A program made the position numbers and the translations under genes. The notes beneath the pieces are model-generated. The model ran no database searches. It had not been told where the DNA came from and saw only the letters and a program-made list of their open reading frames with translations. A stretch of 62,950 nucleotides of DNA, counting the filler. It is 3 parts of 3 records of this genome, joined end to end, with 100 filler letters (N's around TTAATTAATTAA, not from the genome) between each part and the next. Parts side by side here need not be neighbours in the genome. Positions count along the whole stretch, not along the records: positions 41,524 to 62,950 come from SRR22947725_1020; 2 more parts are not named here. The stretch is one strand, 5' to 3'. Below, one piece after another: positions 28,814 to 57,398 of this stretch. Position 1 is the stretch's first letter; each line of letters opens with the position of its first letter.

Positions 28814-28913
28814 NNNNNNNNNNNNNNNNNNNNNNNNNNNNNNNNNNNNNNNNNNNNTTAATTAATTAANNNNNNNNNNNNNNNNNNNNNNNNNNNNNNN
28901 NNNNNNNNNNNNN
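28814..28913. other. Artificial contig-joining spacer
   Basis: 44 N + TTAATTAATTAA (stops in all six frames) + 44 N; genes on both sides are truncated and base composition jumps across it. Confidence 0.97.
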
Positions 28914-41423: not shown

Positions 41424-41523
41424 NNNNNNNNNNNNNNNNNNNNNNNNNNNNNNNNNNNNNNNNNNNNTTAATTAATTAANNNNNNNNNNNNNNNNNNNNN
41501 NNNNNNNNNNNNNNNNNNNNNNN
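41424..41523. other. Artificial contig-joining spacer
   Basis: Identical in structure to 28814-28913; truncated genes and a composition shift on both sides. Confidence 0.97.
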
Positions 41524-42093
41524 TTTTACAATATATATAAATTGATTTGCTAAGGGTGGAAGAATGCGGCGAATAGCTTGTGGTAAAATTACATAACGCA
41601 TCGTTTGAATATAATTGAGACCAATTGAATGGGCTGCTTCTTTTTGACCTTTTGCAATTGATTGAATGCCTGCGCGATAAATTTCAGCTGTAAATGCACT
41701 GTCAGAAATTGCTAAAGTAATTACTGCCCCCCAAAAGGGATCAATAGGTATATTTATTCCCATAGATCTAAATATTATTGGAAGGCCATAGAAAACCCAA
41801 AATAACATTGGCAATAATGGAATAGATCTAATTAATTCAACATAAATCCTATTTACTATTCGCCATCCTTTTTTTGAAGATTGTCCTGGCAAAGCAATTA
41901 TAAGACCGAGGTTAATTGATATAAAGGCAGCTACAATAGAGATAAGAATAGTATTCCCAATCCCTGAGACTAAAAATTTTATATTAATCCATCCTGATGG
42001 CGTAGTTGGATTTATAACATACCAACCCCATATGTCTGAAGAACATCCAGCTAATGCTAGGCAAGTAAAACATAAAATAAGAATTTTTTTCAT
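41524..42093 (-). CDS. Polar amino acid (HisM/GlnP-type) ABC permease, 3' truncated, with an N-terminal lipobox
   Basis: YVELIRSIP, AFTAEIYRAGIQSI..GQ.EAA.SIG (EAA loop), ILPQAIRRILPP.ANQF. Confidence 0.9.
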
Positions 42094-42100
42094 TTTGAAC

Positions 42101-42844
42101 TTAATGTTTTAAAATTTGATTTAAAAAAGTTTTACAACGCTCTGTCTTAGGAGATCTAAAGAATTCTTCAGTAGTATTTTGTTCTACAATTTTTCCTTTA
42201 TCCATAAAAAGAACTTTATCTGCTACTTTCCGTGCAAAGCCCATTTCATGGGTCACGACAATCATAGTCATTCCGTCGTTTGCAAGCTCAACCATTACAT
42301 CAAGTACTTCAGATATCATTTCTGGATCTAAAGAAGATGTTGGTTCATCAAATAACATAACCTTAGGTTCCATGCAGAGAGATCTTGCTATTGCGACACG
42401 TTGTTGTTGTCCACCTGAAAGCTGAGCAGGCATTTTATTTGCTTGGTCTGGAATATCAACTCTTTCTAAATAATGCATTGCTATTTTGACAGCTTCATCA
42501 CGATTTTTATGCCGTGTTTTCATGGGCCCTAATATTAAATTCTCCAATACATTTATATGGGGAAAAAGATTAAATTGTTGAAATACCATTCCTATATTTC
42601 CTTGGATAGAATTAGCCGATTTTTCACTATTAGTTAATTCTTTTCCGTATAAAGATATAAAACCGCTTTGGTGTTTCTCAAGTTTATTAATGCAACGAAC
42701 CACAGTAGACTTCCCTGAACCAGATGGTCCACAAATTACTACTTTCTCCCCGGTTTCTACTTTTAAATTAATATCTTTAAGTACATGAAATTTATCAAAC
42801 CATTTGTTCACATTAATTAATTCTATTGCAGTAGTTTGCATCAT
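42101..42844 (-). CDS. Polar amino acid ABC transporter ATP-binding protein (GlnQ-like)
   Basis: [37 protein letters not shown]. Confidence 0.95.
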
Positions 42845-42941
42845 TTACCTGTAGATTATATTTTACTTATATGGATATAGAGCTACTTTAAATTAATCCA
42901 ATGCTTCAACAAGCATATAAACGAATATTCAGGAGAATAAG

Positions 42942-43712
42942 ATGAATAAATATTTTAAAGCAGCAGCAATAGCTATTCTTGGAATGACATTGACTGGCGC
43001 AGCAAATGCGCAATCTGCCTTAAATGAAATACTTAGTTCTGGCGTCTTAAAAGTTGGGACGACTGGTGATTGGAATCCTATGACAGTTCGTGATCCAGCA
43101 ACGAACAGTTACAAAGGTTTTGATATTGATATTATGGAAGAGCTGGCCAAAGATTTAGGTGTCGAAGTCGAATTCGTACCAACAGATTGGAAAACACTAG
43201 TCAATGGTGTTGTTGCAGGGCAGTATCATATTACTGGTTCAGCTTCAATTTCACCAGCAAGGATGAAAGCAGCAGGATTTTCTGAAAGCTATATCTCTGT
43301 TGAAATAGTACCATTTACTGCGAAAGAAAATGCAGGAAAATTTGATGGGCATGAAGCAATTAACCAAACAGGAGTAAAAGTAGCCACAACACTTGGTACT
43401 ACATTTGAGAAACTTGTAAGAACGTGGTATCCTAACGCTGATATTAAAGTTGTTGAAGCGCCGGCGCGTGGATATCAAGAAGTGCTAGCTGGTAGAGCTG
43501 ATGTGTTTATCACATCAAATATTGAAGGCTCAACACTTGAAGAGAAATTTGGAGTAGCCCGCGTAAGTAACGCTGAAGCTCGCTCTCCAACACCAATAGC
43601 AATGCTTTTGCCACAAACAGATCAAGTCTGGATCAATTATGTTAATAATTGGGTAAAAGTTAAAGAAGCAAAAGGTTTTTTTGAAGCAAACAAAGCTAAA
43701 TGGGGTCTATAA
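42942..43712 (+). CDS. Family 3 solute-binding protein of the SAR11_1068/cyclohexadienyl dehydratase-related clade
   Basis: Sec signal ending ANA; GTTGDWNP, ATTLGT, PARGYQEVLAGRAD, DQVW..YVN.W; AGGAGA RBS. Confidence 0.82.
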   Translation: MNKYFKAAAIAILGMTLTGAANAQSALNEILSSGVLKVGTTGDWNPMTVRDPATNSYKGFDIDIMEELAKDLGVEVEFVPTDWKTLVNGVVAGQYHITGSASISPARMKAAGFSESYISVEIVPFTAKENAGKFDGHEAINQTGVKVATTLGTTFEKLVRTWYPNADIKVVEAPARGYQEVLAGRADVFITSNIEGSTLEEKFGVARVSNAEARSPTPIAMLLPQTDQVWINYVNNWVKVKEAKGFFEANKAKWGL

Positions 43713-43719
43713 AATTATT

Positions 43720-43755
43720 AATCTGGCAGAATATTTATGTTCTGCCAGATTTTTA
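43720..43755. terminator. Intrinsic terminator, probably bidirectional, between convergent SBP and stcD genes
   Basis: AATCTGGCAGAA (43720-43731) / TTCTGCCAGATT (43740-43751) inverted repeat with a T run on the right and A-rich sequence on the left. Confidence 0.8.
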
Positions 43756-45798
43756 TAAGTCTTTTACCAACCTTAACGCATCATAAATTGCTGCGTGAGT
43801 GTTGCGTGAAGATACAGCGTCTCCAATTCTAAATAATTGGAATTTACCACTATTATTTTTTGTTATTTTTTGCACATCGCCATTAATTAATGCATCATAA
43901 TCGACAGCACCATAATTCTTACTCTTAGGTTTCAATTCAAAATACAGATCATCCAATGGCATTGTTCCATAATTAACTATTATTTGATCATATTTTTTTT
44001 CTTCTACATATTCACTATAATCAGTACCAATTTTAGCTGTTAGTTTGTTACCTGTAAGCATTACATCTAACAGCCGGTGGGTAACTGTAAAAGTTACATC
44101 TTTCTTTTGAAGTGATCGCATATATGGAGTGAGGTTCATTGCCATAATTTCGGGGGAAAAAGTTCGGTCTGGTGTCATAACTTCAACTTTTGAACCTGAA
44201 TTTGCAGCAATTTCTGCCGCTTGGAGTGCTGGGTGATCGCCACTTTCATCGTAAATTAGTATATTCTCTGCGGGCTTTATATCACCTGAAATTATATCCC
44301 ATGTACTTATAACATAATTTGCGTCTTTCTTACTTTCAAACAGTTCTAAATTTGGCAATCCACCTGTTGCTATAATAACAATGTCTGGGTTTAAAGAAAT
44401 AATGTCGTCAGCCTCTGCCCAATTATTGAATTTAAATTCAACACTTCGGGCTGCACACTGTGCCATGCGCCAGTCAATGATTGATATCATTTCTCGTCTG
44501 CGTGGACTTTTTGCAGTTAGGCGAATTTGCCCACCTGGATCTGATTGGGCTTCGAAAACAACAACTTCATGACCACGTTCTGCTGCGACTCGCGCTGATT
44601 CTAAACCTGCTGGGCCTGCTCCAACAATTACAATTTTTTTTAATTCTATAGCGGGAGTAATCTCATGTGGCATTGTAAGCTCACGGCCAGTCGCAGGATT
44701 ATGAATACATAATGCGTCTCCAGCTTGATATATACGATCTAAACAATAAGTTGCACCAACACACGGCCTGATATCACCTTCACGGCCTTCAATAATTTTT
44801 TTCACAATATGAGGGTCGGCCATATGTGCTCGTGTCATTCCAACCATATCAAGTAAGTTATTTTCAATAGCATGGCGTGCAGTCGAAACATCTGGAATTC
44901 GTGAAGCGTGGAAAGTTGGCATACCTGTTAATTTCTTAACTTCACCAGCAAAATCTAAATGTGGAGCGCTAGGCATTCCTTGAACTGGTATTACATCAGT
45001 AAGGTCTGCATCTGTGTGAATTCGGCCACGTATAATATTTAAAAAATCTAATTGACCAGTTTCAGATAGTCTCTTTGAAATATCCAAACCATCTTTTGCT
45101 GTTAGTCCACCCTTTTTTGCTTCATCAGCCGTATATCTAAATCCTATAATAAACTCTTTACCAACACGATTTCTAACAGCATTTAAAACATCCAAAGGAA
45201 ATTGCATCCGGTTTTCTAATGTATCAGCTCCATAAGGACCAGCAAGATCGTTAGTCAGTGGTGACCAAAATTGATCTAACAAATGGCCATAAACTTGTAA
45301 TTCTATACCATCCATTCCGCCTGCTTTCATCCTCTCAGCAGCATCTGCAAAGTCATTAATGATACGATCAATATCCCAATCTTCAATTAGCTTTGGAAAT
45401 GCTCTGTGTGCAGGTTCCCGATGCTTTGATGATGAGACTACTGGTAGCCAATCATGTTTATTCCAGCTTGTCCGTCGTCCTAAATGTGTTAATTGGATCA
45501 TGACTGCACAACCATGTTGATGGCATCCATCTGTTAAATTTTGGATCCAGGGGACGACTTCGTCTTTATATGCCAACACATTGTTAAAAACTGGTGGACT
45601 ATCTTTGGAAACTGCTGCAGAGCCTGCGGTCATTGCTAACGCAACTCCAGCTTTTGCACGCTCTTCATGATAAGCTCTATAGCGTTCCTTTGGCATACCA
45701 TCTTCCGGGTATGCCGGTTCATGACTTGTTGTCATGATACGATTCTTTAATATTAAGTTTTTAAGCTTAAAAGGCTGGAGTAATGGATCTTTTGACAT
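43753..45798 (-). CDS. stcD: NADH:flavin oxidoreductase, N-methylproline demethylase StcD/HpbA type
   Basis: DPLLQP..LK.L.L.NRI..T.HEPAYPEDGMPKERYRAY, QLTHLGRRT, RPCVGATYCLDRIY (Fe-S), GAGPAG, RIGDAV..RNTHAAIYDALRL; closely follows the recalled S. meliloti StcD sequence. Confidence 0.82.
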   Translation of the reverse strand: MSKDPLLQPFKLKNLILKNRIMTTSHEPAYPEDGMPKERYRAYHEERAKAGVALAMTAGSAAVSKDSPPVFNNVLAYKDEVVPWIQNLTDGCHQHGCAVMIQLTHLGRRTSWNKHDWLPVVSSSKHREPAHRAFPKLIEDWDIDRIINDFADAAERMKAGGMDGIELQVYGHLLDQFWSPLTNDLAGPYGADTLENRMQFPLDVLNAVRNRVGKEFIIGFRYTADEAKKGGLTAKDGLDISKRLSETGQLDFLNIIRGRIHTDADLTDVIPVQGMPSAPHLDFAGEVKKLTGMPTFHASRIPDVSTARHAIENNLLDMVGMTRAHMADPHIVKKIIEGREGDIRPCVGATYCLDRIYQAGDALCIHNPATGRELTMPHEITPAIELKKIVIVGAGPAGLESARVAAERGHEVVVFEAQSDPGGQIRLTAKSPRRREMISIIDWRMAQCAARSVEFKFNNWAEADDIISLNPDIVIIATGGLPNLELFESKKDANYVISTWDIISGDIKPAENILIYDESGDHPALQAAEIAANSGSKVEVMTPDRTFSPEIMAMNLTPYMRSLQKKDVTFTVTHRLLDVMLTGNKLTAKIGTDYSEYVEEKKYDQIIVNYGTMPLDDLYFELKPKSKNYGAVDYDALINGDVQKITKNNSGKFQLFRIGDAVSSRNTHAAIYDALRLVKDL

Positions 45799-45955
45799 TT
45801 AAAACCTCTTTAAAAAATTGAGATTAATTATTAAAAGTGTAATCAAACTTTTAAATATGTCTATTGTTAATGTTAAAACTAAATATGCTAAGATATGAAT
45901 TTTTATATAAAATATAATAAACATTTGTCTTGATGAAATATAAATTTAGAAGAAA

Positions 45956-47089
45956 TTATCTGTTAGATTGAACCTGAGCCCATAAATCTCCAATCTCACA
46001 AAGTATTCCTCTTTGAGGGCCTTCTTCACTTTCTACCATAACTTCAGCACCAACATAAGCATTTGATGCCTTAATCATAGCAAATCCTATATTGCCGCCA
46101 TAATCAGGTGAAAAAACAGCAGAAGTAATTATTCCTACATTTTTACCTTCTATTGATACTTTTTTCGGCATTGTTAGTGGTGGCATTTTTGAACCATCAA
46201 TCTCAATACCCATTAAACGTTTTTTTATCCCAACTTTACGCTGTTTTTGCAACGCCGCTTTACCAATAAAATCAACTTCTGAGTCTAAAGAGACATATTT
46301 TTCTAAACCAATTTCTAATGGTGTGTCCTCTCTATTCATATCATTTCCGTATGAAAGAAGGCCAGCTTCAACTCTTTCAATTAAGTTTGGGCAACCGGCT
46401 CGGATGTTATATTTTTTACCTTTTGCCCATATTGCATCCCATAATTCTTCACCAAGGTTCGTATCGTCTAAATAAATTTCAAATCCACCCTGTTTTGACC
46501 ATCCGGACCGGGCAATATTCAACATATGACCTCTGAATGAAAATGCTTTAAAATGAAAGAACTTTACTTCTCGTATTTCTTCGCCAAAAACATCCGCCAT
46601 TAAATCATCTGCAAATGGTCCTTGAATTGCCAGTGGCGAAACATCAGGTTCACATATATCTACGTTTAAACCTAATCCTATAGCTATTCCTTGCACCCAT
46701 AATAGTAGGTCACTATCAGATATAGAAAACCAATATTTATTTTCTGCTAATCTTAATGCAATAGGATCATTGATAATGGCCCCATTTTGGTCGCAAATTG
46801 GAGCATAATAACAACGTCCAACTTTAGCATTAGTTAAATCTCTTGCGGATATCATACAAGCTAACTTATGAGCATCTGGTCCTAGCAACTGAACTTGACG
46901 CTCAACAGATACATCCCAAATTTGGACGTATTCTTTTAAATGTTTATAGTCCTCTTGTAAACTTTCAAAGACTGTTGCCAGTAACATGTGGTTGTAAACT
47001 GTATACCCAGTGACGCCTAATGCTGACACGCGTGAAGTGAAAGGCGTTGCTCGCAAACGTCGCGAAGGAAAAAGCAATGAACCAGACAT
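45956..47089 (-). CDS. dmdA: Dimethylsulfoniopropionate demethylase (GcvT family)
   Basis: FPSRR.R.TPF, YTVYNHMLL, WDV..ERQV, EPDVSPLA.QGP, ARSGWSKQGGFEIY, AGCPN.IERVE.GLLSYGNDM, matching recalled Roseobacter/SAR11 DmdA rather than GcvT. Confidence 0.88.
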   Translation of the reverse strand: MSGSLLFPSRRLRATPFTSRVSALGVTGYTVYNHMLLATVFESLQEDYKHLKEYVQIWDVSVERQVQLLGPDAHKLACMISARDLTNAKVGRCYYAPICDQNGAIINDPIALRLAENKYWFSISDSDLLLWVQGIAIGLGLNVDICEPDVSPLAIQGPFADDLMADVFGEEIREVKFFHFKAFSFRGHMLNIARSGWSKQGGFEIYLDDTNLGEELWDAIWAKGKKYNIRAGCPNLIERVEAGLLSYGNDMNREDTPLEIGLEKYVSLDSEVDFIGKAALQKQRKVGIKKRLMGIEIDGSKMPPLTMPKKVSIEGKNVGIITSAVFSPDYGGNIGFAMIKASNAYVGAEVMVESEEGPQRGILCEIGDLWAQVQSNR

Positions 47090-47160
47090 TAATGAACCTC
47101 ACAAAATGCATTTGAATATATTTTTGTTTTAATATGTATAAATCAAACCAGTATTTCTTT

Positions 47161-47190
47161 TTGCGACTTTTTTAGGGTCGCCTTCGACTT
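47161..47190 (-). promoter_or_regulatory. Candidate AraC/GlxA (GATR)-type operator upstream of dmdA
   Basis: Minus strand AAGTCG-N15-AAGTCG direct repeat with 21-bp period (plus-strand CGACTT at 47164 and 47185), plus an overlapping GCGAC/GTCGC inverted repeat, in otherwise AT-rich DNA. Confidence 0.4.
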
Positions 47191-47340
47191 AACAATGGCC
47201 TGTATTATTTCCATTTATCCAATTAAAAGCTTCGATCAATTGTAACGTTAGGTCACTTTATAAACAAAAATGCTAGGTCTCTTGACATAATGTGCTTATA
47301 GTCGGAATTCGTATGATAAATGAGTTAATAGGAGTATACT

Positions 47341-48636
47341 ATGACAGGTGATTATAAATTTGATACCCTCAGTTTGCATGCTGGTTTTACCCCAGATGAT
47401 CGCCATGGATCTGCTGCAGTTCCAATTCATCAAACAACCTCATATGTTTTTAAAAATACAGAACACGCTGCAGCACTATATAATCTAGAAATAGGTGGTC
47501 ATTTATATTCGCGCATATCAAATCCTACAGTTGCGGTACTTGAACAACGTGTTGCAGCCTTAGATGAAGGTATAGGTGCTGTTGCAACATCATCTGGTAT
47601 GTCGGCGTTATTTGTAACTGTACTGGCACTATGTTCTGCCGGTGACCATATAGTATCATCATCTCAAATGTATGGTGCTAATATAAACTTATTTCAGCAC
47701 ACGTTATCAAGATATGGAATTACGACAACATTTGTTGCTCCAAATAAGCCTGAAGCTTTTGCCGAGGCTATTCAAGAAAACACAAAAATGGTTTTTGGAG
47801 AAGTAATAGGCAATCCAGGTCTTGATATCATGGATATTACGCGTGTTGGTAAAATTGCTAATGATGCGGGTGTGCCGTTGGTTATTGATGCAACATTTAA
47901 TACGCCATATTTACTAAAACCATTAAAAAACGGAGCTAATATTGTTATACATTCTCTAACTAAGTGGATGGGTGGCCATGGTGTAGCGCTAGGAGGAATA
48001 GTTGTTGATGGTGGTAATTTTGATTGGGGTCAGAATGACCGATTTCCAACTTTAACTGAATCACATTTTGGCTTCCAAGGAGTAAATTTGTATGAAGAGT
48101 TTGGACCAGCTGCTTTCATTAATCGTGTACGAACTGAAGGTATGTATAATGTAGGACCATGCTTGTCTCCAACAAACGCTTTCCACTTAATTCAAGGGAT
48201 AGAAACTCTAGGGTTACGTATGGATCGTCACATGAAAAATACTGAAAAAATGTTAAATTTTTTATCTGAACATGAAGCTATTTCTTGGGTAAAACATCCA
48301 ACTTTGCCTAACCATCCTGATTATGAAGTTGCCAAGCGTCTTATGCCAAAAGGTTCTGGTTCTGTTATTGCATGTGGCTTAAAAGGTGGGCGACAAGCAG
48401 GCCAAACTTTTATTGAAAGCGTTCAAGTTGCATCCCATTTAGCGAATGTAGGTGATGCAAAAACTTTAGTTATTCATCCAGGTTCTACTACTCAAAGTCA
48501 TTTGAGCCCCGAGGCAATGAAGGCAGCTGGATTAACTGATGATATGTTAAGAATTTCTGTTGGATTAGAAGATTTTGATGATTTGAAATCAGACTTTGAA
48601 CAGGCATTAAGTCGCGCGTCTAAAGCCAGGGGTTAA
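47341..48636 (+). CDS. metY: O-acetylhomoserine aminocarboxypropyltransferase (sulfhydrylase)
   Basis: FDTLSLHAG, PIHQTTSYVF, YSRISNPT, SSGMSA, HSLTKWMGGHG (PLP Lys), HLANVGDAKTLVIHP, RISVGLE; AGGAG RBS. Confidence 0.88.
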   Translation: MTGDYKFDTLSLHAGFTPDDRHGSAAVPIHQTTSYVFKNTEHAAALYNLEIGGHLYSRISNPTVAVLEQRVAALDEGIGAVATSSGMSALFVTVLALCSAGDHIVSSSQMYGANINLFQHTLSRYGITTTFVAPNKPEAFAEAIQENTKMVFGEVIGNPGLDIMDITRVGKIANDAGVPLVIDATFNTPYLLKPLKNGANIVIHSLTKWMGGHGVALGGIVVDGGNFDWGQNDRFPTLTESHFGFQGVNLYEEFGPAAFINRVRTEGMYNVGPCLSPTNAFHLIQGIETLGLRMDRHMKNTEKMLNFLSEHEAISWVKHPTLPNHPDYEVAKRLMPKGSGSVIACGLKGGRQAGQTFIESVQVASHLANVGDAKTLVIHPGSTTQSHLSPEAMKAAGLTDDMLRISVGLEDFDDLKSDFEQALSRASKARG

Positions 48637-48639
48637 TTC

Positions 48640-49437
48640 ATGAAAATTAATTTAAACAATGAAATAATTTTTGCTTCAACGGGTGGTAGGGTTTTTGAAC
48701 CAAAAATGGATCCTTTATGGTTCATACATGGTTCAGGACAAAGCCACCTTTCTTTTATTCTTCAAGGACGGTTTTTTGCAAACCGTGGTTGGCCTGTTAT
48801 TGCAGCAGATATGCCATCTCATGGTTTGTCAAATGGAATAGCTTTAATGTCTATTGAAGCTATGTCTGATTGGCAAATAGCTTTGATGGATCAATTAGAT
48901 GTAGAGAAAGTTCAAATCGTTGGACATTCTCAAGGTGGTCTAATTGGTTTGGATATGGCGCATCGTTATCCTAATCGTGTTTCACAATTATCATTGGTTG
49001 CGACTGCTTTATCAATTCCTGTTAATGCTGGATTAATTGAAATGGCAAAAAATAAAGAGCAGTCTGCAATTGATGCTATGATTGATTGGGGCCATGGCCC
49101 TGAAGGGCACAATCACGATAACACTATGCCAGGCCAAAACCATCTAAATTTTGGAGTGCAGCTAATGGCTGCGAATAAAGTAGGAGCTTTATATGCTGAT
49201 CTTAAGGCTTGTGTTGATTATACTAATGGTAATCTTGCAGCAAATGAAATTAAATTACCTGTGCAACTTATTCTTGCCCAAAAAGATAAGATGACACCTA
49301 TGAAATCTGGGCTCAAGGCAGCTGAAGCGTTAAGGACAGATAACATTACCATAGTTGAAAATGCTGGCCATATGTTGCCCTCAGAGCACCCTGAAGATGT
49401 TAACCGGGCATTGCGCTCATTTTTTATTAAGAGTTGA
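48640..49437 (+). CDS. Alpha/beta fold hydrolase
   Basis: IHGSG oxyanion loop, GHSQGG nucleophile elbow, D in KDKMTP, H in AGHM; 3 nt after metY. Confidence 0.9.
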   Translation: MKINLNNEIIFASTGGRVFEPKMDPLWFIHGSGQSHLSFILQGRFFANRGWPVIAADMPSHGLSNGIALMSIEAMSDWQIALMDQLDVEKVQIVGHSQGGLIGLDMAHRYPNRVSQLSLVATALSIPVNAGLIEMAKNKEQSAIDAMIDWGHGPEGHNHDNTMPGQNHLNFGVQLMAANKVGALYADLKACVDYTNGNLAANEIKLPVQLILAQKDKMTPMKSGLKAAEALRTDNITIVENAGHMLPSEHPEDVNRALRSFFIKS

Positions 49438-49440
49438 AAT

Positions 49441-51774
49441 ATGTCAGAATTTAAACGAATTGCAGTAATTGGTGCAGGCACTATGGGGAGTGGTATTGCA
49501 GCCCAAATTGCAAATGCTGGACACAAAGTTCTATTGATGGATTTGCCCCGAGATGATGATCCACTTGGAGTATTGAAAGATGCAAAAGTACGACTTTTAA
49601 AGTCTGACCCTCCTGCGCTGGTTCATAAATCTCGTATTGATCTAATTGAAGTTGGTAATATTCGAGATGACTTTAACAAATTGGCAAACTGTGATTGGAT
49701 TGTTGAAGCAGTTGTAGAGCGCTTAGATATTAAAAAAGATTTATATAAACGACTTAATGAAGTTATAAATCCTAATTGTGTTGTAACCTCTAATACATCG
49801 ACAATACCAATTTCTTTGTTGGTTGAAGATATGCCTAAAGATTTTCAGAAACGATTTGCTATTACGCATTATTTTAACCCAGTTCGATACATGCGTTTAC
49901 TAGAGCTCGTTCGCGGTGCAAATACTGATGAAAAAATAATGGACCAACTGGCAGATTATAATGACCGGGTCATGGGTAAAGGTGTTGTTAGGTGCAATGA
50001 TACTCCTGGGTTTTTAGGAAATAGAGTAGGTGTATTTGCCCTTCAAGTTGGAATGGATGAAGCTTCAAGAAATAAACTTACTGTTGAAGAAGCTGATGCT
50101 TTAATGGGTAGGCCAATGGGCATACCTAAAACTGGTGTTTTTGGATTATACGATCTGATTGGTATCGATTTGATGTCTGATGTAGTAAACACTCTAGGCG
50201 ATATCCTTCCAGAAGATGATTTGTTTCATGAAGTTGGCACATTAAATAATCCTGTAATGCCCCTAATTAGAGATATGATCAAAAATGGATTTACAGGTGA
50301 TAAAGGTGCAGGTGGGTTTTATCGAATAGAAAGCAATACAAATTGTGCGGTTGATTTGAACAATGGTAAAATACGCCTTCGGCAGAAGACTTTGCCAATA
50401 AGCGCTCAGAAAGCTGCTGATGCACAAGCTGCTGGGGGCGAAACTCTAACAATTATGATAAGTGGCTCTGATAACCATGCAACCTTTTGTAAACGTTTTC
50501 TAGCTCGTACTTTAGCTTATGCTGCAGATCTAATTCCAGCAGTAACATCTAGCCCTCAAGATATTGATGATGCAATGAAGTTAGGTTTTAATTGGGTCCG
50601 TGGCCCATTCGAATTGATTGATGCTTTAGGGGCTGATGTAGTTTCAAAATTAATTGAAGAGGTAGGTTTAACTGTACCAAAAGCTATATCTTTAAGTGAA
50701 GAAACAGGACCGTTTTATTCTGTGAATAAATCTAGTTTAAATGTATTAAATTTTGAAGATAATATATTTTATTCACCTGTTGTTTTACCTGAAAATACAA
50801 TTCGTTTTCATATGACTAAACAAACTATGATACCATTATTAACTAATTCCGCTGCTAGCTTGTACGAGTTAAAAGGAAATTTGCGATTACTTGAATTCCA
50901 TTCTAAGGCGAATGCACTCACGGCTAAATCTATGGAAATAGTTCTTGCAGCAGCTAAAAACCATGGTGATGGTATTATAGTTCACAATGATGCACAGCAT
51001 TTCTCCGCAGGAGTTGATTTAAATCGTTTTCGCTCATTTATTGAGGCTTCTGACTGGAAAGGAATTGATGAATTTCTAAATAGTTTTCAACAATCTGTTA
51101 AAGCTCTTAAGTATTCGCCTGTACCAGTTATTGGTGCACCTTCTGGATTATCTATTGGTGGTGGTTTTGAAGTTTTAGCGCATTGTGATAAACTTATTGC
51201 ACATACAAATACAGTTTTTGGATTGGTTGAGACTGGGGTTGGTGTTGTGCCTGGTGGGGGTGGAGTTAAAGAAACTTTATTACGTTGGCATCAAGCAACA
51301 GGAGATTGGGGAAAAGCTTCTTGGAATACATGGATGCAAATTGGTTATGGGCAAATTGGTACAAGTCCTGATCTTTCAGCTCGGATGCAATATTATCTAA
51401 AAGATAGAGATATTGAAGTTCTTAACCGTGATAAATTAATGCATATAGCTATTACTGAGATGACAAAATTACAAAAAGAATATTTACCACCAATTGAACC
51501 AGTTTTCGAACTTCCTGGATCTGCTATGATTAAAAAAATGTCTGACTTTATGCAAGATGGAATAAATAAAGGTTTATTTTTTCCTCATGATAAAACAGTA
51601 GCAATGCAAGTTGCTGAAATTGTAGTTAACAGCGCTGACGAAAATACTATTACTGTATCTGAACAAGATATGTATAATCGAGAGCGACGTGCATTTTTAA
51701 ATTTGGCAAAAACACCAGAGACTATTGCTCGCATTTCCAGTCTATTGGATACTGGTGAAGCTATAAGAAATTAG
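49441..51774 (+). CDS. FadN-like 3-hydroxyacyl-CoA dehydrogenase/enoyl-CoA hydratase fusion
   Basis: GAGTMG, EAVVE, SNTS, HYFNPVRYM.L.E dehydrogenase motifs; C-terminal crotonase with FSAGVDL, GGGFE and LVETGVGVVPGGGG. Confidence 0.9.
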   Translation: MSEFKRIAVIGAGTMGSGIAAQIANAGHKVLLMDLPRDDDPLGVLKDAKVRLLKSDPPALVHKSRIDLIEVGNIRDDFNKLANCDWIVEAVVERLDIKKDLYKRLNEVINPNCVVTSNTSTIPISLLVEDMPKDFQKRFAITHYFNPVRYMRLLELVRGANTDEKIMDQLADYNDRVMGKGVVRCNDTPGFLGNRVGVFALQVGMDEASRNKLTVEEADALMGRPMGIPKTGVFGLYDLIGIDLMSDVVNTLGDILPEDDLFHEVGTLNNPVMPLIRDMIKNGFTGDKGAGGFYRIESNTNCAVDLNNGKIRLRQKTLPISAQKAADAQAAGGETLTIMISGSDNHATFCKRFLARTLAYAADLIPAVTSSPQDIDDAMKLGFNWVRGPFELIDALGADVVSKLIEEVGLTVPKAISLSEETGPFYSVNKSSLNVLNFEDNIFYSPVVLPENTIRFHMTKQTMIPLLTNSAASLYELKGNLRLLEFHSKANALTAKSMEIVLAAAKNHGDGIIVHNDAQHFSAGVDLNRFRSFIEASDWKGIDEFLNSFQQSVKALKYSPVPVIGAPSGLSIGGGFEVLAHCDKLIAHTNTVFGLVETGVGVVPGGGGVKETLLRWHQATGDWGKASWNTWMQIGYGQIGTSPDLSARMQYYLKDRDIEVLNRDKLMHIAITEMTKLQKEYLPPIEPVFELPGSAMIKKMSDFMQDGINKGLFFPHDKTVAMQVAEIVVNSADENTITVSEQDMYNRERRAFLNLAKTPETIARISSLLDTGEAIRN

Positions 51775-51783
51775 GGGGCTATA

Positions 51784-53385
51784 ATGAGCATTTATGACGA
51801 TTTTGAAAAAAACTCTGCAAACTACGCTGCATTATCGCCGCTTTCGTTTATAAAACGCACTGCATTAATGTTTCCAGATCGTGATGCCGTAATCTATGGA
51901 AATCGTAATTATAGCTGGTCGCAATTATACAAACGGTCAATTCAATTAGCATCTGCGTTGAATAAGAATGGTGTTGGGAAAGGTGACACAGTTGCAATAC
52001 TCGCCGCTAATACTCCTGAAATGATTGAAGCGCATTTTGGCATTCCTATGTCGGGGGCTATTTTAAATACTATAAATACCCGGTTAGACACTGATACTAT
52101 TTCATATATCCTTGGTCATGGAGAAGCTAAGGTTTTTATTGTTGACGGTGAACTTGCCCCTCAGGCAGCAGATGCCATTAAAGGTCGAGATATACTTGTA
52201 GTTGATATTGCTGATTTGCAAGACAATCCAAATCCAAACCGGATTGGCACAATTGATTATTCTGATTTTATTAAATTAGGTGATGAAAGTGCAAAATGGG
52301 AAATGCCCACAGATGAATGGGATGCAATTGCACTAAACTATACCTCAGGCTCGACAGGCCGCCCTAAAGGCGTTGTTTATCACCACCGGGGTGCTTATTT
52401 GATGTCTATGGGAGTAATTGCTGATTGGGGATTACCAAGGCATCCAAAATACCTTTATACAGTTCCGTTATTTCACTGTAATGGATGGTGCCATGGATGG
52501 GCTATGGCTGCTTTGGCTGGAACTATTGTATGTACGCGCGCTATTACACCTGCAGTCATTTATAACGCAATTAGTGAATACGGCATCACGCATTTTGGAG
52601 GTGCACCAATAGTTTTAGGAATGATTTTAAATGCAAATGATAATGATCGAAAAAATTTCGCTTATACAGTAAATGTAATGACTGCAGGTGCACCACCTCC
52701 AGCCGCAGTTTTAGAAGGCATTGAAAATCTTGGCTTTAATGTTACGCAAGTTTATGGGTTAACTGAAACTTATGGACACACAGTAATGTCTACTTGGAAT
52801 AGTGATTGGGATGATTTGCCGCAAGATCAACGTGCAATAATGAAATCACGACAAGGCGCAGGAATGGTTCATACTGATGGCTTGCGTGTAGTTGATACCA
52901 ACGGAATAGATGTACCAGCAGATGGTGAAACATTTGGAGAAATATTAATCCGTGGCAATACTGTCATGAAGGGATATTTGAAAAACCCAAAAGCAACATC
53001 TGAAGCTTTTGCAGATGGCTGGTTTAGATCTGAAGATTTAGCCGTAATGCATTCAAATGGTTATGTTGAAGTTAAGGATAGATTAAAAGACATAATTATA
53101 TCAGGTGGTGAGAATATTTCATCTGTTGAAGTCGAAGGAATTTTACATCGACATGAGGCTGTGGCTTTAGCTGCTGTTGTCGCAATGAAAGATGAAAAGT
53201 GGGGTGAAGTGCCTTGTGCTTTCATTGAATTAAAAGATGGAAAATCTGTAACTGAAAATGAAATTATATCTTTTTGCCGTGATCATCTTGCTGGTTTTAA
53301 ACGCCCTAAAAGGGTTATATTTGGAGTGCTCCCAAAAACTGCAACAGGTAAGATTCAGAAATATGAATTAAGAAACAATATTTGA
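51784..53385 (+). CDS. dmdB: Acyl-CoA synthetase, DmdB-like (3-methylmercaptopropionate-CoA ligase)
   Basis: NY..LSPLSF, NYTSGSTGRPKGVVYHHRG.YL, PLFHCNGW, GGAPIVL, YGLTETYGH, SGGENISS; resembles recalled SAR11/Roseobacter DmdB and sits in a dmdA neighbourhood. Confidence 0.68.
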   Translation: MSIYDDFEKNSANYAALSPLSFIKRTALMFPDRDAVIYGNRNYSWSQLYKRSIQLASALNKNGVGKGDTVAILAANTPEMIEAHFGIPMSGAILNTINTRLDTDTISYILGHGEAKVFIVDGELAPQAADAIKGRDILVVDIADLQDNPNPNRIGTIDYSDFIKLGDESAKWEMPTDEWDAIALNYTSGSTGRPKGVVYHHRGAYLMSMGVIADWGLPRHPKYLYTVPLFHCNGWCHGWAMAALAGTIVCTRAITPAVIYNAISEYGITHFGGAPIVLGMILNANDNDRKNFAYTVNVMTAGAPPPAAVLEGIENLGFNVTQVYGLTETYGHTVMSTWNSDWDDLPQDQRAIMKSRQGAGMVHTDGLRVVDTNGIDVPADGETFGEILIRGNTVMKGYLKNPKATSEAFADGWFRSEDLAVMHSNGYVEVKDRLKDIIISGGENISSVEVEGILHRHEAVALAAVVAMKDEKWGEVPCAFIELKDGKSVTENEIISFCRDHLAGFKRPKRVIFGVLPKTATGKIQKYELRNNI

Positions 53386-53422
53386 TTTAACCTCCAAGAC
53401 TGGTCCTGAAATTTTATTTTAG

Positions 53423-54208
53423 TTATTTGCCTTTCCAAACTGGTTTGCGCTTTTCTGAAAATGCTTTTGCACCTTCAAGTTGATCCTCTGATGTATAAAG
53501 AGTTTTCACAGTGGGAAGCTCACTTGATGTTATAGTGTTTAATGCATCCTGAAACTTCATGTTCTCGGCTTCACGAACAACTTCTTTAATTGCAGCGTAA
53601 ACTAAAGGTGGACCAGCGGCCAATATTTTAGCCATATTTCGGGCTTCTTCCATTAATGTTTCTGCAGGATGAATTTGATTTATTAATCCCCAACGTGCAG
53701 CTTCTTCTGCATCTATCCACCTTCCTGTAAATAGCATTTCCATTGCAATATGATAAGGAATACGCTTTGGTAACTTTATTGAAGCTGCATCTGCAACTGT
53801 TCCTGAGTTTATTTCTGGTAAAGCAAATTGGGCATGCTCTGCAGAAAGAATAATGTCTGCAGATAATGCCAGCTCTAATCCGCCTCCACAACAAATGCCA
53901 TTTACTGCAGCAATAACGGGTTTGTTTAGATTTTTTAATTCTTGAAGTCCACCAAAACCACCTTGGCCATAATCACCGTCTACTTCGTCACCATCTGCAG
54001 CAGCTTTCAAATCCCATCCTGGGCAGAAAAATTTTGGACCAGCACCTGTAATAATAGCTACACGGAGTTCCGGATTATCTCTAAAACTTGCAAAAACATC
54101 TCCCATAATTCTACTTGTTTTTAGGTCTATGGCATTAGCTTTTGGCCGATCTAAAATGACTTCTAAAACATGACCATCTTGTATTGTTTTGATTGGACTT
54201 TCAGTCAT
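53423..54208 (-). CDS. caiD: Carnitinyl-CoA dehydratase/crotonobetainyl-CoA hydratase (CaiD/BcoD type)
   Basis: LDRPKANAID, FFCPGWDLKAAA.G...D.DYG.GGFGG, GGGLEL, ALPE, SEDQLEG..AF.EKR; last gene of the carnitine operon. Confidence 0.85.
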   Translation of the reverse strand: MTESPIKTIQDGHVLEVILDRPKANAIDLKTSRIMGDVFASFRDNPELRVAIITGAGPKFFCPGWDLKAAADGDEVDGDYGQGGFGGLQELKNLNKPVIAAVNGICCGGGLELALSADIILSAEHAQFALPEINSGTVADAASIKLPKRIPYHIAMEMLFTGRWIDAEEAARWGLINQIHPAETLMEEARNMAKILAAGPPLVYAAIKEVVREAENMKFQDALNTITSSELPTVKTLYTSEDQLEGAKAFSEKRKPVWKGK

Positions 54209-56237
54209 TTTTTTCTCCTATTTTTATTAATGCATCAGCTACAATGGCATCTAATTCTCTACACATGAGTGGGTTAATTTCAACTTCTGATATTTTCCCA
54301 TGATTTGAAATAACAAAATTTTGAACATTCTGAATTGTTTTTAATATGCTATCTATGTTGGGAGATGGTGCTCCTCTATATCCTAAAAACAATGGCCACA
54401 TTTTGAGTGTTTTTAGTGATTTTAAAATGTCTTCATTATTTGCTGGTATTAATAAAGAAACTTTATCATCAAATATTTCGGTAAGCTTTCCTCCTGAAGC
54501 AATGGTTAAAACATAACCATGAGCTTCATCTAAAACTACTCCAATTAACAATTCTAATAAACTATCATTAATCATCTTTTCTATTAAAAATGTTTCGCTT
54601 GGCATAATTTTTGCAGCATTAAGAATATCTGTTTGATTTTGTAAATTTAATGCAACAAGTCCTGCTTCGGTCTTATGGGCGCTACCTTCGCCTTTTAATA
54701 CAACTGGATACCCAATTTCATTTGCAGTATTTTTGATATCTTCATAATTAGATACAGTCTGTAAAATTGGTAGTTGGATATCAAATTCCCCAAGCATTTT
54801 TTTTGCTGTGGCTTCAGTTAATACTTTTGCATTTAATGGAATGATTGGCGGCAAAATGTTCTTAGATTTCATTTTTGAATATGTTGCGAATTTGGCAATG
54901 GAATCTAAAGCACTTTCGATACCCCCAAATGGAATAATACCTTTTTCTAATAGTTCTTTTGCAATCGTTTCTGGTAAAGTATCTGAAATGGAACCAACAA
55001 CTCCAATCTGGCATCCTGTTTTGTTTTTGGCTTCAACAAGAGAAGGGATGACATCAACCCACATTTGTGGATTACATCGATCAGTGCGTGGAAAGTCTAA
55101 AACTAATAAACCAATGCAGTTTGAGTCTTTTAGTGCAGCAATAAAAGTTTGAGTCATTGCCTCCCAATTACCCCAAATATAAGTATGGTAATCCAATGGA
55201 TTTGCTAATTTTACCATTTTTCCCAAAGTATTTCGCAACCTTGAAGATTGATTTTCGCTTAGTGGTGGGAAATTAATTCCAACTGCCTGACCTATGTCAG
55301 CCATCAAGCTTGCTTCACCTCCAGAACATGACATTGATAAGACGTTATTATTTGGTTGCTCCCCAACTACATGAGCTAATTTTAATGTTTCTAAAAATGT
55401 AGTTAGATTTTGTATTTGAACCACACCCAAACGACTGAATAAAGCAGTTGCGCCAGCGTTACTTCCAGCGATCGATGCAGTATGGGAAATTGTTGCAGCT
55501 CGAGCCTGATCAGAGCTTCCAACTTTTAATATAATTATGGGTTTTCCTAGATTATTGGCAATCTGTACCATTCTTTCAAATTCAACAACATCTTTAATCC
55601 CTTCAATGTGAAGCCCTAAAGCTGTTACACGTGGATCTTTCAAGAATTCAGCAGCCATTTCTGCTAAGCTGACCTGAGCTTGATTTCCAACAGAGGAAAT
55701 AAAAGCAATTGGTAGCCCTCGTGTTTGCATTGTTAAATTAATAGCAATATTAGAAGATTGAGTAATAATGGCTACGCCAGTTTCTACTCGCTCGCCACCA
55801 TGTTGATCTGGCCACAATAGTGACCCATCAAGGTAATTTATAAATCCATAACAATTCGGACCCAAGATAGCCATTTCACCTGCAGCCAATAATAATTGAT
55901 GTTCCAAATCAGCACTTTTTGCATCTTCAGATACTGACTCTGAAAACCCACTAGCAAAACAAACAGCACCTTTGGCTTTTATGGAATTTAATGATTTTAT
56001 TACTTCAATTGTTGTAAATCTATTCACGCCCACGAAACTTGCATCTGGTCCGTATGGAAGATCTTCCACCGTTTTGAAACAGGAAATTCCATTGATCTCA
56101 TTACGTTTTGGATGAACTGCCCATATTGATCCTTGAAAATCCATTTTTTTGCATTGTTCAATAACATTTTCGCACCATGATCCACCGCCTATTACGGCAA
56201 TAGATTTGGGATGTAATAGGCTTCCAAGGTTATTCAT
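54201..56237 (-). CDS. NDP-forming acyl-CoA synthetase (fused alpha-beta), probable gamma-butyrobetainyl-CoA synthetase
   Basis: PKSIAVIG, CFASGF.E, GPNCYG, TQSSN, SHTASIAG (phospho-His), SCSGGEA, NPLDY, HKTE.G.V, EINPL. Confidence 0.8.
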   Translation of the reverse strand: MNNLGSLLHPKSIAVIGGGSWCENVIEQCKKMDFQGSIWAVHPKRNEINGISCFKTVEDLPYGPDASFVGVNRFTTIEVIKSLNSIKAKGAVCFASGFSESVSEDAKSADLEHQLLLAAGEMAILGPNCYGFINYLDGSLLWPDQHGGERVETGVAIITQSSNIAINLTMQTRGLPIAFISSVGNQAQVSLAEMAAEFLKDPRVTALGLHIEGIKDVVEFERMVQIANNLGKPIIILKVGSSDQARAATISHTASIAGSNAGATALFSRLGVVQIQNLTTFLETLKLAHVVGEQPNNNVLSMSCSGGEASLMADIGQAVGINFPPLSENQSSRLRNTLGKMVKLANPLDYHTYIWGNWEAMTQTFIAALKDSNCIGLLVLDFPRTDRCNPQMWVDVIPSLVEAKNKTGCQIGVVGSISDTLPETIAKELLEKGIIPFGGIESALDSIAKFATYSKMKSKNILPPIIPLNAKVLTEATAKKMLGEFDIQLPILQTVSNYEDIKNTANEIGYPVVLKGEGSAHKTEAGLVALNLQNQTDILNAAKIMPSETFLIEKMINDSLLELLIGVVLDEAHGYVLTIASGGKLTEIFDDKVSLLIPANNEDILKSLKTLKMWPLFLGYRGAPSPNIDSILKTIQNVQNFVISNHGKISEVEINPLMCRELDAIVADALIKIGEKND

Positions 56238-57398
56238 TTACGCACCCAATGGGCGTAGTAATTCACGACTGATTATATGACGCTGAATTTCAGATGTCCC
56301 ATCCCAGATACGTTCTACTCGAGCATCTCTCCAAAACCGTTCAATAGGAAAATCATCCATTAAACCCATCCCACCAAATATTTGCAATGTTTTATCAGTT
56401 ACACTTGCTAAAGTCTCTGAAGCAAATACTTTTGCACTTGCTATTTCTCGATTTGACGGTTGTCCTTGATCAAGCATCCAAGCAGATTTTAATGTCAATA
56501 AATCTGCAGCATCTATATCTGTTATCATGTCAGCAATTTGAAAGCCTACTCCCTGGAATTTTCCAATTGCTTGCCCAAATTGTTTTCGTTCTGCAGCATA
56601 ATTAAGTGCATAATCAAAGCATCTTCTAGCTCGGCCAACTGAAAATGCTGCAACTGTTATTCTTGTTGCATAAAGCCATTCATTCATAACGGCAAAGCCC
56701 CCATCAATTTCGCCTAAAACAGCCTCTTTAGGTAAACGACAATTATCAAAGTCTAATATGCAATTTTTATATCCCTTATGGCTAACTGAATTGTATCCGT
56801 TTCGAACTTCAAAGCCTTTTGTTCCGCGATCTACAAGAAATGTAGTAATCCGTTTTTTTGGACCTCGCGGCGTTTCATCAACACCAGTTGCTACAAATAC
56901 TATGAAGAAATCAGCATGTTCAGCACCAGATATAAAGTGTTTTGATCCATTAAGTATCCAATCTGAACCATCAGATACAGCGTTGCATTTCATTCCACGA
57001 ACATCACTTCCTGCATCTGGTTCAGTCATGGCCAATGCATCTGTGATCTCACCTTTTACAGCTGGTAGAAGATAGCGCTCTATTTGTTCATCACGACACG
57101 CCATAAGTATATTTTGAGGTCTTCCAAAAAAATGAGTTAACGCCATAGAGCCTCTTCCAAGTTCTCTTTCAACAAGTGTAAAATCAAGATGATTTAAACC
57201 TGCACCACCTACACTTTCAGGAAAGTTACAGGCATAAAAACCTAAATCTAAAACTTTTTGTTTTATTGATTGGCCTAACTCTAGAGGAACATTTCCAGTT
57301 CGCTCTACTTCAGCTTCATGCGGGTAAATTTCTTTTTCAACAAAATTACGTACAGTATCAACAATCATTTCTTGCTCTTGCGATAATCCAAAATTCAT
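56238..57398 (-). CDS. Acyl-CoA dehydrogenase, probable gamma-butyrobetainyl-CoA dehydrogenase
   Basis: AMTEPDAGSD, NGSKHFIS, RKQFGQAI, QIFGGMG, RIWDGTSEIQR; translationally coupled within the carnitine operon. Confidence 0.85.
   Translation of the reverse strand: MNFGLSQEQEMIVDTVRNFVEKEIYPHEAEVERTGNVPLELGQSIKQKVLDLGFYACNFPESVGGAGLNHLDFTLVERELGRGSMALTHFFGRPQNILMACRDEQIERYLLPAVKGEITDALAMTEPDAGSDVRGMKCNAVSDGSDWILNGSKHFISGAEHADFFIVFVATGVDETPRGPKKRITTFLVDRGTKGFEVRNGYNSVSHKGYKNCILDFDNCRLPKEAVLGEIDGGFAVMNEWLYATRITVAAFSVGRARRCFDYALNYAAERKQFGQAIGKFQGVGFQIADMITDIDAADLLTLKSAWMLDQGQPSNREIASAKVFASETLASVTDKTLQIFGGMGLMDDFPIERFWRDARVERIWDGTSEIQRHIISRELLRPLGA

Follow-up and report, generated by a model that had tools for sequence, protein, structure and literature searches.

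A dmdA-linked metY-hydrolase-fadN-ligase unit on an Amylibacter-related contig as a candidate module for the later steps of DMSP demethylation

Demethylation of dimethylsulfoniopropionate (DMSP) decides which share of its sulfur is kept in the food web and which is lost as gas, and most of the ocean DMSP flux is held to go through this route (sections of PMC6850173). We analyzed a DNA stretch of 62,950 nucleotides (nt), hereafter the window, in which dmdA, the gene for DMSP demethylase, lies divergent from four closely spaced genes: metY (O-acetylhomoserine aminocarboxypropyltransferase), an alpha/beta-fold serine hydrolase gene, a fadN-type fusion gene, and an acyl-CoA ligase gene. On balance, we think it probable that these genes form a conserved, expressed module for later DMSP demethylation, coupled to the capture of methanethiol as methionine. 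This reading draws on the gene identities, intact catalytic residues, conserved gene order, and presence in RNA libraries; we infer all substrate assignments after DmdA, including the choice between the FadN crotonase domain and the hydrolase as the releaser of methanethiol. Judged from gene order, links between the unit and DMSP demethylation genes recur in several lineages and in differing arrangements. It offers two widely conserved candidates for the methanethiol-releasing step, the FadN-type fusion and the serine hydrolase, both encoded beside MetY.

Both dmdA and the four-gene unit lie wholly inside the third of the three contigs that make up the window (SRR22947725_1020, 41524-62950). 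This contig comes from a marine roseobacter and matches a contig of an uncultured Amylibacter metagenome-assembled genome (MAG; contig L005) with 1 mismatch in 21175 bases, and the FadN protein of strain HTCC2255 is 94% identical to that of the window. The MAG holding L005 (G002) and HTCC2255 (G003) served as proxies for the parent genome; G002 being a MAG, a gene not found in it may still exist. The open reading frames (ORFs) are exactly as claimed in an earlier note on this DNA. dmdA (377 aa, 45956-47089, minus strand) is separated by a 251-bp AT-rich divergent intergenic region (47090-47340), with AGGAG 8 nt ahead of the metY ATG, from metY (431 aa, 47341-48636), the hydrolase gene (265 aa, 48640-49437), fadN (777 aa, 49441-51774), and the ligase gene (533 aa, 51784-53385), all four on the plus strand with gaps of 3, 3, and 9 nt. 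No thiolase or acyl-CoA dehydrogenase is encoded among these four genes, as had also been stated. The dmdA product scores 516.7 bits against NF009133 (cut-off 410) and contains the domains PF01571 (GCV_T, 116.5 bits) and PF08669 (GCV_T_C, 42 bits); by family membership, it is a predicted DMSP demethylase. An Rfam scan of the window and the intergenic region returned no family (best intergenic E 0.53), and thus no recognized S-adenosylmethionine riboswitch ahead of metY.

Gene order was tallied over the 80 best-matching genomic loci for the FadN subfamily, with denominators counting loci that have enough flank. The hydrolase gene lies directly upstream of fadN in 62/75 loci, and metY plus the hydrolase gene in 61 of 72. 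A ligase gene (≥55% identity) follows fadN directly in 34/72 loci. A dmdA-like gene occurs within 4.8 kb of fadN in 24 of 70 loci, so the survey of gene neighbourhoods that the earlier note had called for does link the unit to dmdA in related genomes. Genes for a long, DmdC-like acyl-CoA dehydrogenase, which shares 50-57% identity with the G002 enzyme, are adjacent in 14/80 loci and acuI-family genes in 6/80, preceding dmdA in these six. Layouts differ between lineages. In Amylibacter and Paramylibacter, dmdA is divergent from the unit. Two MAGs labelled Alphaproteobacteria and Puniceispirillales (L025, L030) carry acuI-dmdA-metY-hydrolase-fadN-ligase on one strand, with dmdA matches of 379-401 bits, just below the cut-off. 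Granulosicoccus (L045, L050) and Halioglobus (L056), which we take to be Gammaproteobacteria, show the order mscS-dmdA-fadN (dmdA 438-444 bits). This variation of arrangement between lineages argues against simple inheritance of one layout.

Metagenome contigs scanned around relatives of the ligase extended the picture. Seven of the 16 loci with metY-hydrolase-fadN also carry a DmdC-like gene, and in L167, L173, L174, and L187 the order metY-hydrolase-fadN-ligase-dmdC lies on one strand. Eight low-GC loci (26-32% GC) hold a DmdC-like gene, a ligase gene, and a hydrolase gene in a tight row, seven of them ending in dmdA; here the hydrolase gene sits between ligase and dmdA on contigs without a nearby metY. 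The fullest form of the module that we saw is the seven-gene row of three of these loci, L157, L162, and L166 (30-31% GC), consisting of genes for a FadN-type protein, a DmdC-like protein, a PRK08162 ligase, a 149-aa ORF without a family match, a PRK08139 crotonase, the hydrolase, and dmdA. The earlier note had mentioned a SAR11-type hydrolase beside dmdA and dmdB as a proposed substitute for DmdD, and the low-GC marine dmdC-ligase-hydrolase-dmdA contigs fit that description, their hydrolases being reciprocal best matches of the metY-linked ones (see below). No genuine SAR11 genome was identified among the genomes examined; three small DmdA-positive ones (G264, G097, G035) have 36-50% GC.

Comparisons among 301 Alphaproteobacteria genomes around G003 (with one unpublished genome each in the metY tally, G245, and the FadN tally, G045, on which nothing else in this analysis depends) suggest that the hydrolase is a partner of MetY first and only possibly a DmdD substitute second, the role in which it had been proposed. 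The window MetY passes NF006004 narrowly (638.8 bits, cut-off 636) and TIGR01326 clearly (562.6 bits, cut-off 495.1). Its residues S205, T207, and K208 are invariant in 32/32 aligned sequences, K208 presumably being the lysine that binds pyridoxal phosphate. The sampled genomes contain two MetY classes. One, which includes the window protein, is 52-96% identical to it and is almost always followed by the hydrolase gene; the second (43-48% identity), often found alongside the first in one genome, lacks a neighbouring hydrolase gene. A clear hydrolase homologue, one each, was found in 77 genomes, and in 70 of them, by coordinate comparison, no more than 500 nt separate it from the best metY homologue. 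Among the seven exceptions (G053, G077, G084, G086, G089, G104, G255), five belong to the six weakest hydrolase matches and one has its genes split over short contigs. In 18 of the 31 metY-hydrolase pairs compared, the two genes overlap, and in 30/31 the gap does not exceed 30 nt. DmdA over the cut-off is present in 16 of the 77 hydrolase-bearing genomes. Because the other 61 lack it, the pair has a DMSP-independent role. The hydrolase occurs in 16/22 DmdA-positive genomes against 61/279 others, a contrast inflated by shared descent.

The catalytic triad of the hydrolase, reported intact in the earlier note, is Ser97-Asp216-His244 and invariant in 37/37 aligned relatives, as are H36, H61, S64, W78, C191, and E249. 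Pfam, NCBIfam, and Atlas give generic alpha/beta-hydrolase names only. The fold model (predicted local distance difference test (pLDDT) 95.7) is nearest to short-acyl esterases, perhydrolases, and an enol-lactonase (template-modelling score ~0.85, identity ≤24%), and with these generic relatives the function is unreadable from sequence and fold searches. Hydrolases of the low-GC dmd clusters find the metY-linked hydrolase as their best match in 5/5 genomes (137-188 bits, next ≤53), and the match is reciprocal in all five; for this reason we treat them as one hydrolase family, whose gene neighbours metY in some genomes and separates the ligase gene from dmdA in others. Triad, adjacency, and reciprocal best matches together place the window protein in this unnamed MetY-associated alpha/beta-hydrolase family. 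The homoserine O-acetyltransferase MetX was considered as an identity, but its model fails (TIGR01392, 26.8 bits against 500, matching at the nucleophile elbow only). A role as homoserine O-acetyltransferase is also unlikely because all five genomes tested have MetA or a MetX-like gene, which weakens that idea.

Structural modelling suggests that the hydrolase is probably docked on MetY. Over three runs, the binding model of the two proteins gave a score of 0.77, while the best of three controls gave 0.00; in calibration, the mark of 0.77 was reached by 51/78 solved complexes and 2/108 mismatched pairs. Contacts agreed by ≥94% and partner pLDDT was ≥91. In the modelled interface, the hydrolase lid (149-178) packs against MetY residues 44-81, 224-228, and 247-264. 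If the hydrolase does bind MetY, it would be a new accessory of methionine synthesis, with its gene next to metY in 70 of the 301 Alphaproteobacteria sampled. As a separate observation, the unrelated 30%-GC genome G001 contains a row of acyl-CoA ligase, metY, hydrolase, and acyl-CoA ligase genes (L099, G001:C1:1935000-1954900), near which a PRK08162 ligase gene (818 bits) is divergent from the gene for a 569-aa long acyl-CoA dehydrogenase.

The FadN-type protein joins an N-terminal 3-hydroxyacyl-CoA dehydrogenase (3HCDH_N 156 bits, 3HCDH 77) to a C-terminal crotonase region in which residues 489-609 match ECH_1 as a partial domain (49.3 bits against 27). Both catalytic glutamates of the crotonase domain are present, as the earlier note had it: Glu577 (GGGFE577) and Glu597 (VE597TG) line up with the paired Glu residues in two other crotonases, and the protein combines the crotonase fold with the two catalytic glutamates expected of a DmdD/AcuH-type enzyme. 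The dehydrogenase domain carries His143 and Glu155. Against the Firmicutes FadN/FadB model NF052272 the protein aligns over 5-777 and scores 424.8 bits, below the cut-off of 999. It shares domain order and full-length alignment with the Bacillus and Staphylococcus FadN/FadB proteins, but has no fadA or fadE partners and falls in a distinct marine subfamily tied to metY. FadN-type proteins occur in 88/301 Alphaproteobacteria. Only the five that are ≥56% identical to the window protein adjoin metY-hydrolase, and the other 83 (35-42%) lie elsewhere. All five genomes with the metY-hydrolase-linked form match dmdA (four over the cut-off, four adjacent), compared with 22/301 DmdA-positive genomes overall; the match of the fifth, 378.6 bits and under the cut-off, is adjacent to the cluster. 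G002 and G003 also encode a classical FadB/J-type protein of ~740 aa. We regard the window FadN as a specialised subfamily, an extra paralogue beside the classical FadB/J.

The ligase had been called dmdB, a family name that does not hold. It scores 295.5 bits against the curated DmdB model NF005426 (cut-off 822) and belongs to PRK08162 instead (NF006020, 819.7 bits, cut-off 677). Among solved structures, a Thermus long-chain ligase is the best match (261 bits); 6ihk, which we take to be Ruegeria lacuscaerulensis DmdB, scores 219 bits. DmdB as a function name appears only in the form of an automatic UniRef name on the Paramylibacter orthologue. NF005426 DmdB exceeds its cut-off in 57/301 Alphaproteobacteria and was not found over cut-off in G002-G005, which leaves PRK08162 ligases as the only candidates found in those genomes. 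PRK08162 ligase genes lie directly beside dmdA and/or DmdC-type genes in L104, L168, L174, L176, and others: that of L104 (798 bits) directly follows dmdA, and that of L168 (867.5 bits) is beside dmdA (587 bits) and a DmdC-like gene. In a ligase tree, the window protein falls in a supported 11-row PRK08162 clade, which otherwise consists of ligases of metY clusters from loci labelled Paracoccaceae, SAR116, and Puniceispirillales and contigs related to a Porticoccaceae-labelled protein (ligase 69-70% identical to that of the window). The tree is a quick version with Shimodaira-Hasegawa-like approximate likelihood ratio test support only and unreliable rooting: the outgroup ORFs L189 and L192, poorly extracted, have long branches, and the NF005426-type rows attach on a branch 4.7 long. 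"DmdB" is thus a fair functional guess from genomic context, not a family membership. We describe the protein as a candidate methylmercaptopropionate (MMPA)-CoA ligase of the PRK08162-type AMP-forming acyl-CoA ligases.

The description of the operon as lacking dmdC and dmdD stands for the operon itself but not for the closest genome. The four-gene unit encodes no DmdC, that is, no long acyl-CoA dehydrogenase with a PF12806 C-terminal domain. A 592-aa dehydrogenase of the DmdC type is, however, encoded elsewhere in both G002 (G002:C7) and G003; the best solved match of the G002 protein is 6ijc (427.8 bits), presumably Roseovarius DmdC. Further crotonases are also encoded in G002. A second cluster in both genomes (L101, G002:C26, 7249-11645; G003:C1:759386-763428) has the order lrp, dmdA-like paralogue (382 bits, under the cut-off), PRK08139 crotonase, and second PRK08162 ligase (882 bits). 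In two small MAFFT alignments, this crotonase and its relative in L162 carry Gln and Gly in place of the two catalytic glutamates, and because of this replacement the enzyme may not be a plain hydratase.

In the pathway that we propose, DmdA would convert DMSP to MMPA and the PRK08162 ligase would activate MMPA to MMPA-CoA. The DmdC-type dehydrogenase, encoded elsewhere in this genome and inside the cluster in other lineages, would oxidize MMPA-CoA to methylthioacryloyl-CoA. The FadN crotonase domain and/or the serine hydrolase would then release methanethiol and process the C3-CoA, as DmdD/AcuH do in model strains, and MetY, probably with the hydrolase docked, would condense methanethiol and O-acetylhomoserine to methionine. 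FadN and hydrolase might act in sequence, by hydration, hemithioacetal oxidation, and thioester cleavage. Alternatively, methanethiol might be released before 3-oxopropionyl-CoA is reduced towards acryloyl-CoA and AcuI; in this reductive variant, the hydrolase could be the releasing enzyme, and FadN with AcuI could take 3-oxopropionyl-CoA to propionyl-CoA. The absence of a crotonase gene from the row in the low-GC clusters L168-L170 and L181 favours the hydrolase as the releasing enzyme, and the gammaproteobacterial dmdA-fadN pairs favour FadN. We also considered a route, quite improbable in our view, in which methanethiol is never free. FadN would hydrate methylthioacryloyl-CoA to a hemithioacetal and oxidize this to the S-methyl thioester of malonyl-CoA, by analogy with glutathione-dependent formaldehyde dehydrogenase, and the hydrolase, docked on MetY through its lid, would cleave the thioester and hand over methanethiol. 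If true, acetaldehyde, CO2, and volatile methanethiol would be replaced as products by methionine, malonyl-CoA, and NADH.

The frame is that of the known demethylation pathway, from which the unit departs in its ligase family, in the fusion of hydratase and dehydrogenase, and in including a hydrolase and MetY. Similar to the DmdA-DmdB-DmdC-DmdD/AcuH pathway of Ruegeria pomeroyi and R. lacuscaerulensis (sections of PMC5395565 and PMC6850173), the window has DmdA over the cut-off with an adjoining CoA ligase and a crotonase-type domain with both catalytic Glu, and the closest genome has a DmdC-type dehydrogenase. In contrast to that pathway, the ligase is of the PRK08162 and not the NF005426 type, the hydratase is fused to a 3-hydroxyacyl-CoA dehydrogenase, and a serine hydrolase and MetY are built in. 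As far as passages of PMC5395565 go, DmdD is absent from most DmdA-bearing bacteria, and the last step is otherwise assigned to a side activity of AcuH. Passages of PMC5069961 describe DmdD orthologues as absent from Pelagibacter and take MetY to condense methanethiol with O-acetylhomoserine.

In SAR92 strains and Pelagibacter HTCC1062, the reported order is dmdA-acuH-dmdB-dmdC, and the cluster is DMSP-induced in HTCC2207 (excerpts of PMC10746254). The second cluster of G002 and G003 has this SAR92-type order, dmdA-acuH-dmdB. The low-GC marine contigs L168-L170 and L181 resemble these clusters in holding DmdC-like, PRK08162 ligase, hydrolase, and dmdA genes in one row (ligase 52-53% and hydrolase 31-32% identical to those of the window), but carry the alpha/beta hydrolase instead of a crotonase between dmdA and ligase. 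The window, unlike the SAR92 and HTCC1062 clusters, adds metY and the FadN fusion, with dmdC kept elsewhere in the genome. In 24/26 roseobacters, acuI lies 3' of dmdA, with HTCC2255 as a named exception (Todd et al. 2012, in parts of PMC3338564). As in that dmdA-acuI operon, dmdA anchors a DMSP-related unit here, and acuI precedes dmdA in the six loci of the FadN family mentioned above; the window differs in having a flavoenzyme gene 3' of dmdA and a divergent partner unit. The window MetY is placed to take DMSP-derived methanethiol, as in direct capture by MetY (PMC5069961, PMC7157515), whereas in those organisms metY is not described as linked to dmd genes or to a hydrolase gene. An isotope study of Ruegeria attributed only 33-50% of methionine to direct methanethiol capture (sections of PMC7157515). 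We found no description of metY-hydrolase-FadN with dmdA in the literature, of which supplementary gene maps (PMC6383258 Fig. S8, PMC10746254 Table S2) could hold one.

The genes are present in RNA libraries. Fourteen RNA runs from six studies contain 80-96% of the sampled words of the stretch, and contigs from the RNA libraries of four runs (four studies) cover all of 43700-54300, bridging the metY/hydrolase, hydrolase/fadN, and fadN/ligase junctions. The dmdA-metY intergenic region is uncrossed in three of these four runs, with 47174-47330 uncovered by contigs of X1, X2, and X6, a weak hint of divergent transcription. One contig of run X6 covers dmdA and no other gene (45933-47097), and both of its ends carry adapter sequence; should they be genuine ends, dmdA would have a monocistronic transcript with a leader of ~8 nt.

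Several points weigh against a module for DMSP demethylation coupled to methionine synthesis. Contigs from RNA libraries prove neither transcription, nor strand, nor a single transcript; DNA may be present, and a contig of run X5 crosses the intergenic region. The window ligase fails the curated DmdB model, and the second cluster of G002 and G003 could be the real MMPA route, its ligase lying nearer to the low-GC dmd-cluster ligases in the quick tree. MetY residues 44-81, at the modelled docking site, are a region that we take to be part of the subunit interface in this enzyme family; the site may be occupied in the tetramer, and docking there may be an artefact of modelling a monomer. The metY-hydrolase pair is common in genomes without DmdA, and 46 of 70 FadN loci, including Planktomarina-labelled ones, have no nearby dmdA-like gene. 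Gene-order tallies, moreover, do not count independent events, since related genomes share labels by descent.

The last two distributions are also what would be expected if the module recycled thioether acids derived from methionine and not DMSP specifically, with MMPA arising from transamination or salvage, MetY recapturing the methanethiol from its breakdown, and DmdA as one of several feeders. DmdB and DmdC are, according to sections of PMC5395565, far more widespread than DmdA, and methionine degradation is named there as a source of MMPA. We nevertheless think this rather unlikely: the specialised FadN subfamily was found beside metY only in genomes carrying dmdA (5/5), and three arrangements place dmdA and acuI in physical linkage with the module. 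The chemistry being identical, this alternative widens the demethylation reading more than it contradicts it.

An unlikely explanation, in our judgement, is that FadN and the ligase process acrylate or 3-hydroxypropionate formed when DMSP is cleaved, through acryloyl-CoA, 3-hydroxypropionyl-CoA, and 3-oxopropionyl-CoA, while metY-hydrolase is an unrelated methionine-synthesis pair that lies upstream by chance. Such a route would accord with the complete hydratase and dehydrogenase of FadN, with the acuI-family gene that opens the cluster in six loci, and with the action of AcuH-type hydratases on acryloyl-CoA (passages of PMC5395565). It needs no acyl-CoA dehydrogenase, yet a DmdC-type gene adjoins in 14/80 genomic and 7/16 metagenome loci. 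Chance also sits poorly with the position of fadN after metY-hydrolase in 61/72 loci and with the same hydrolase family lying between ligase and dmdA on low-GC contigs without metY. Very improbable, finally, is an ordinary fatty-acid beta-oxidation operon (FadN plus FadD) lying by chance beside methionine biosynthesis and dmdA: NF052272, the Bacillus/Staphylococcus FadN/FadB architecture, is the best-scoring model for FadN and the ligase reaches 445 bits on the long-chain ligase subfamily NF004837 (against 476), but the four-gene unit has no thiolase or dehydrogenase, a classical FadB/J is encoded elsewhere, generic FadN homologues (83/88) are never beside metY while the ≥56% subfamily always is, and linkage to dmdA, dmdC, or acuI recurs.

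Beyond the ligase gene, a convergent operon (53423-58831, minus strand), on which the earlier note is silent, starts 38 nt past the ligase stop. It encodes a CaiD-like crotonase (53423-54208, minus strand; 324 bits, below the cut-off), an ADP-forming acyl-CoA synthetase, a 386-aa acyl-CoA dehydrogenase of the short type (56238-57398, minus strand), and a carnitine 3-dehydrogenase (729.8 bits against a cut-off of 592), and it looks like a carnitine-type catabolic unit. The CaiD-like crotonase scores 127.7 bits against 5xzd, which we take to be AcuH. The operon is conserved only in the closest relatives (L005-L010, L014). On metagenome contig L161, a ligase gene and a DmdC-like gene are followed by the same crotonase and dehydrogenase genes on the opposite strand. 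On the other side, 157 nt 3' of dmdA, lies the gene for a 681-aa flavoenzyme resembling old yellow enzyme (OYE)/FadH (43753-45798, minus strand), which is not at the corresponding place in HTCC2255 (L007). Beside it, within 41524-43712, is a polar-amino-acid/ectoine-type ABC transporter. No tRNA was found in the window.

The remaining two contigs appear to be of other origin. The three contigs are joined by N spacers at 28814-28913 and 41424-41523 and have GC contents of ~30%, 50%, and 37%; as they look like separate organisms, a mixed bin is suggested. The second contig opens within an AcrB gene (at profile position 288), and the first shares 94-98% identity with G001 (30% GC), which was considered as kin of the finding and set aside, matching the first contig only. 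Each spacer consists of 44 N, 12 bases, and 44 N.

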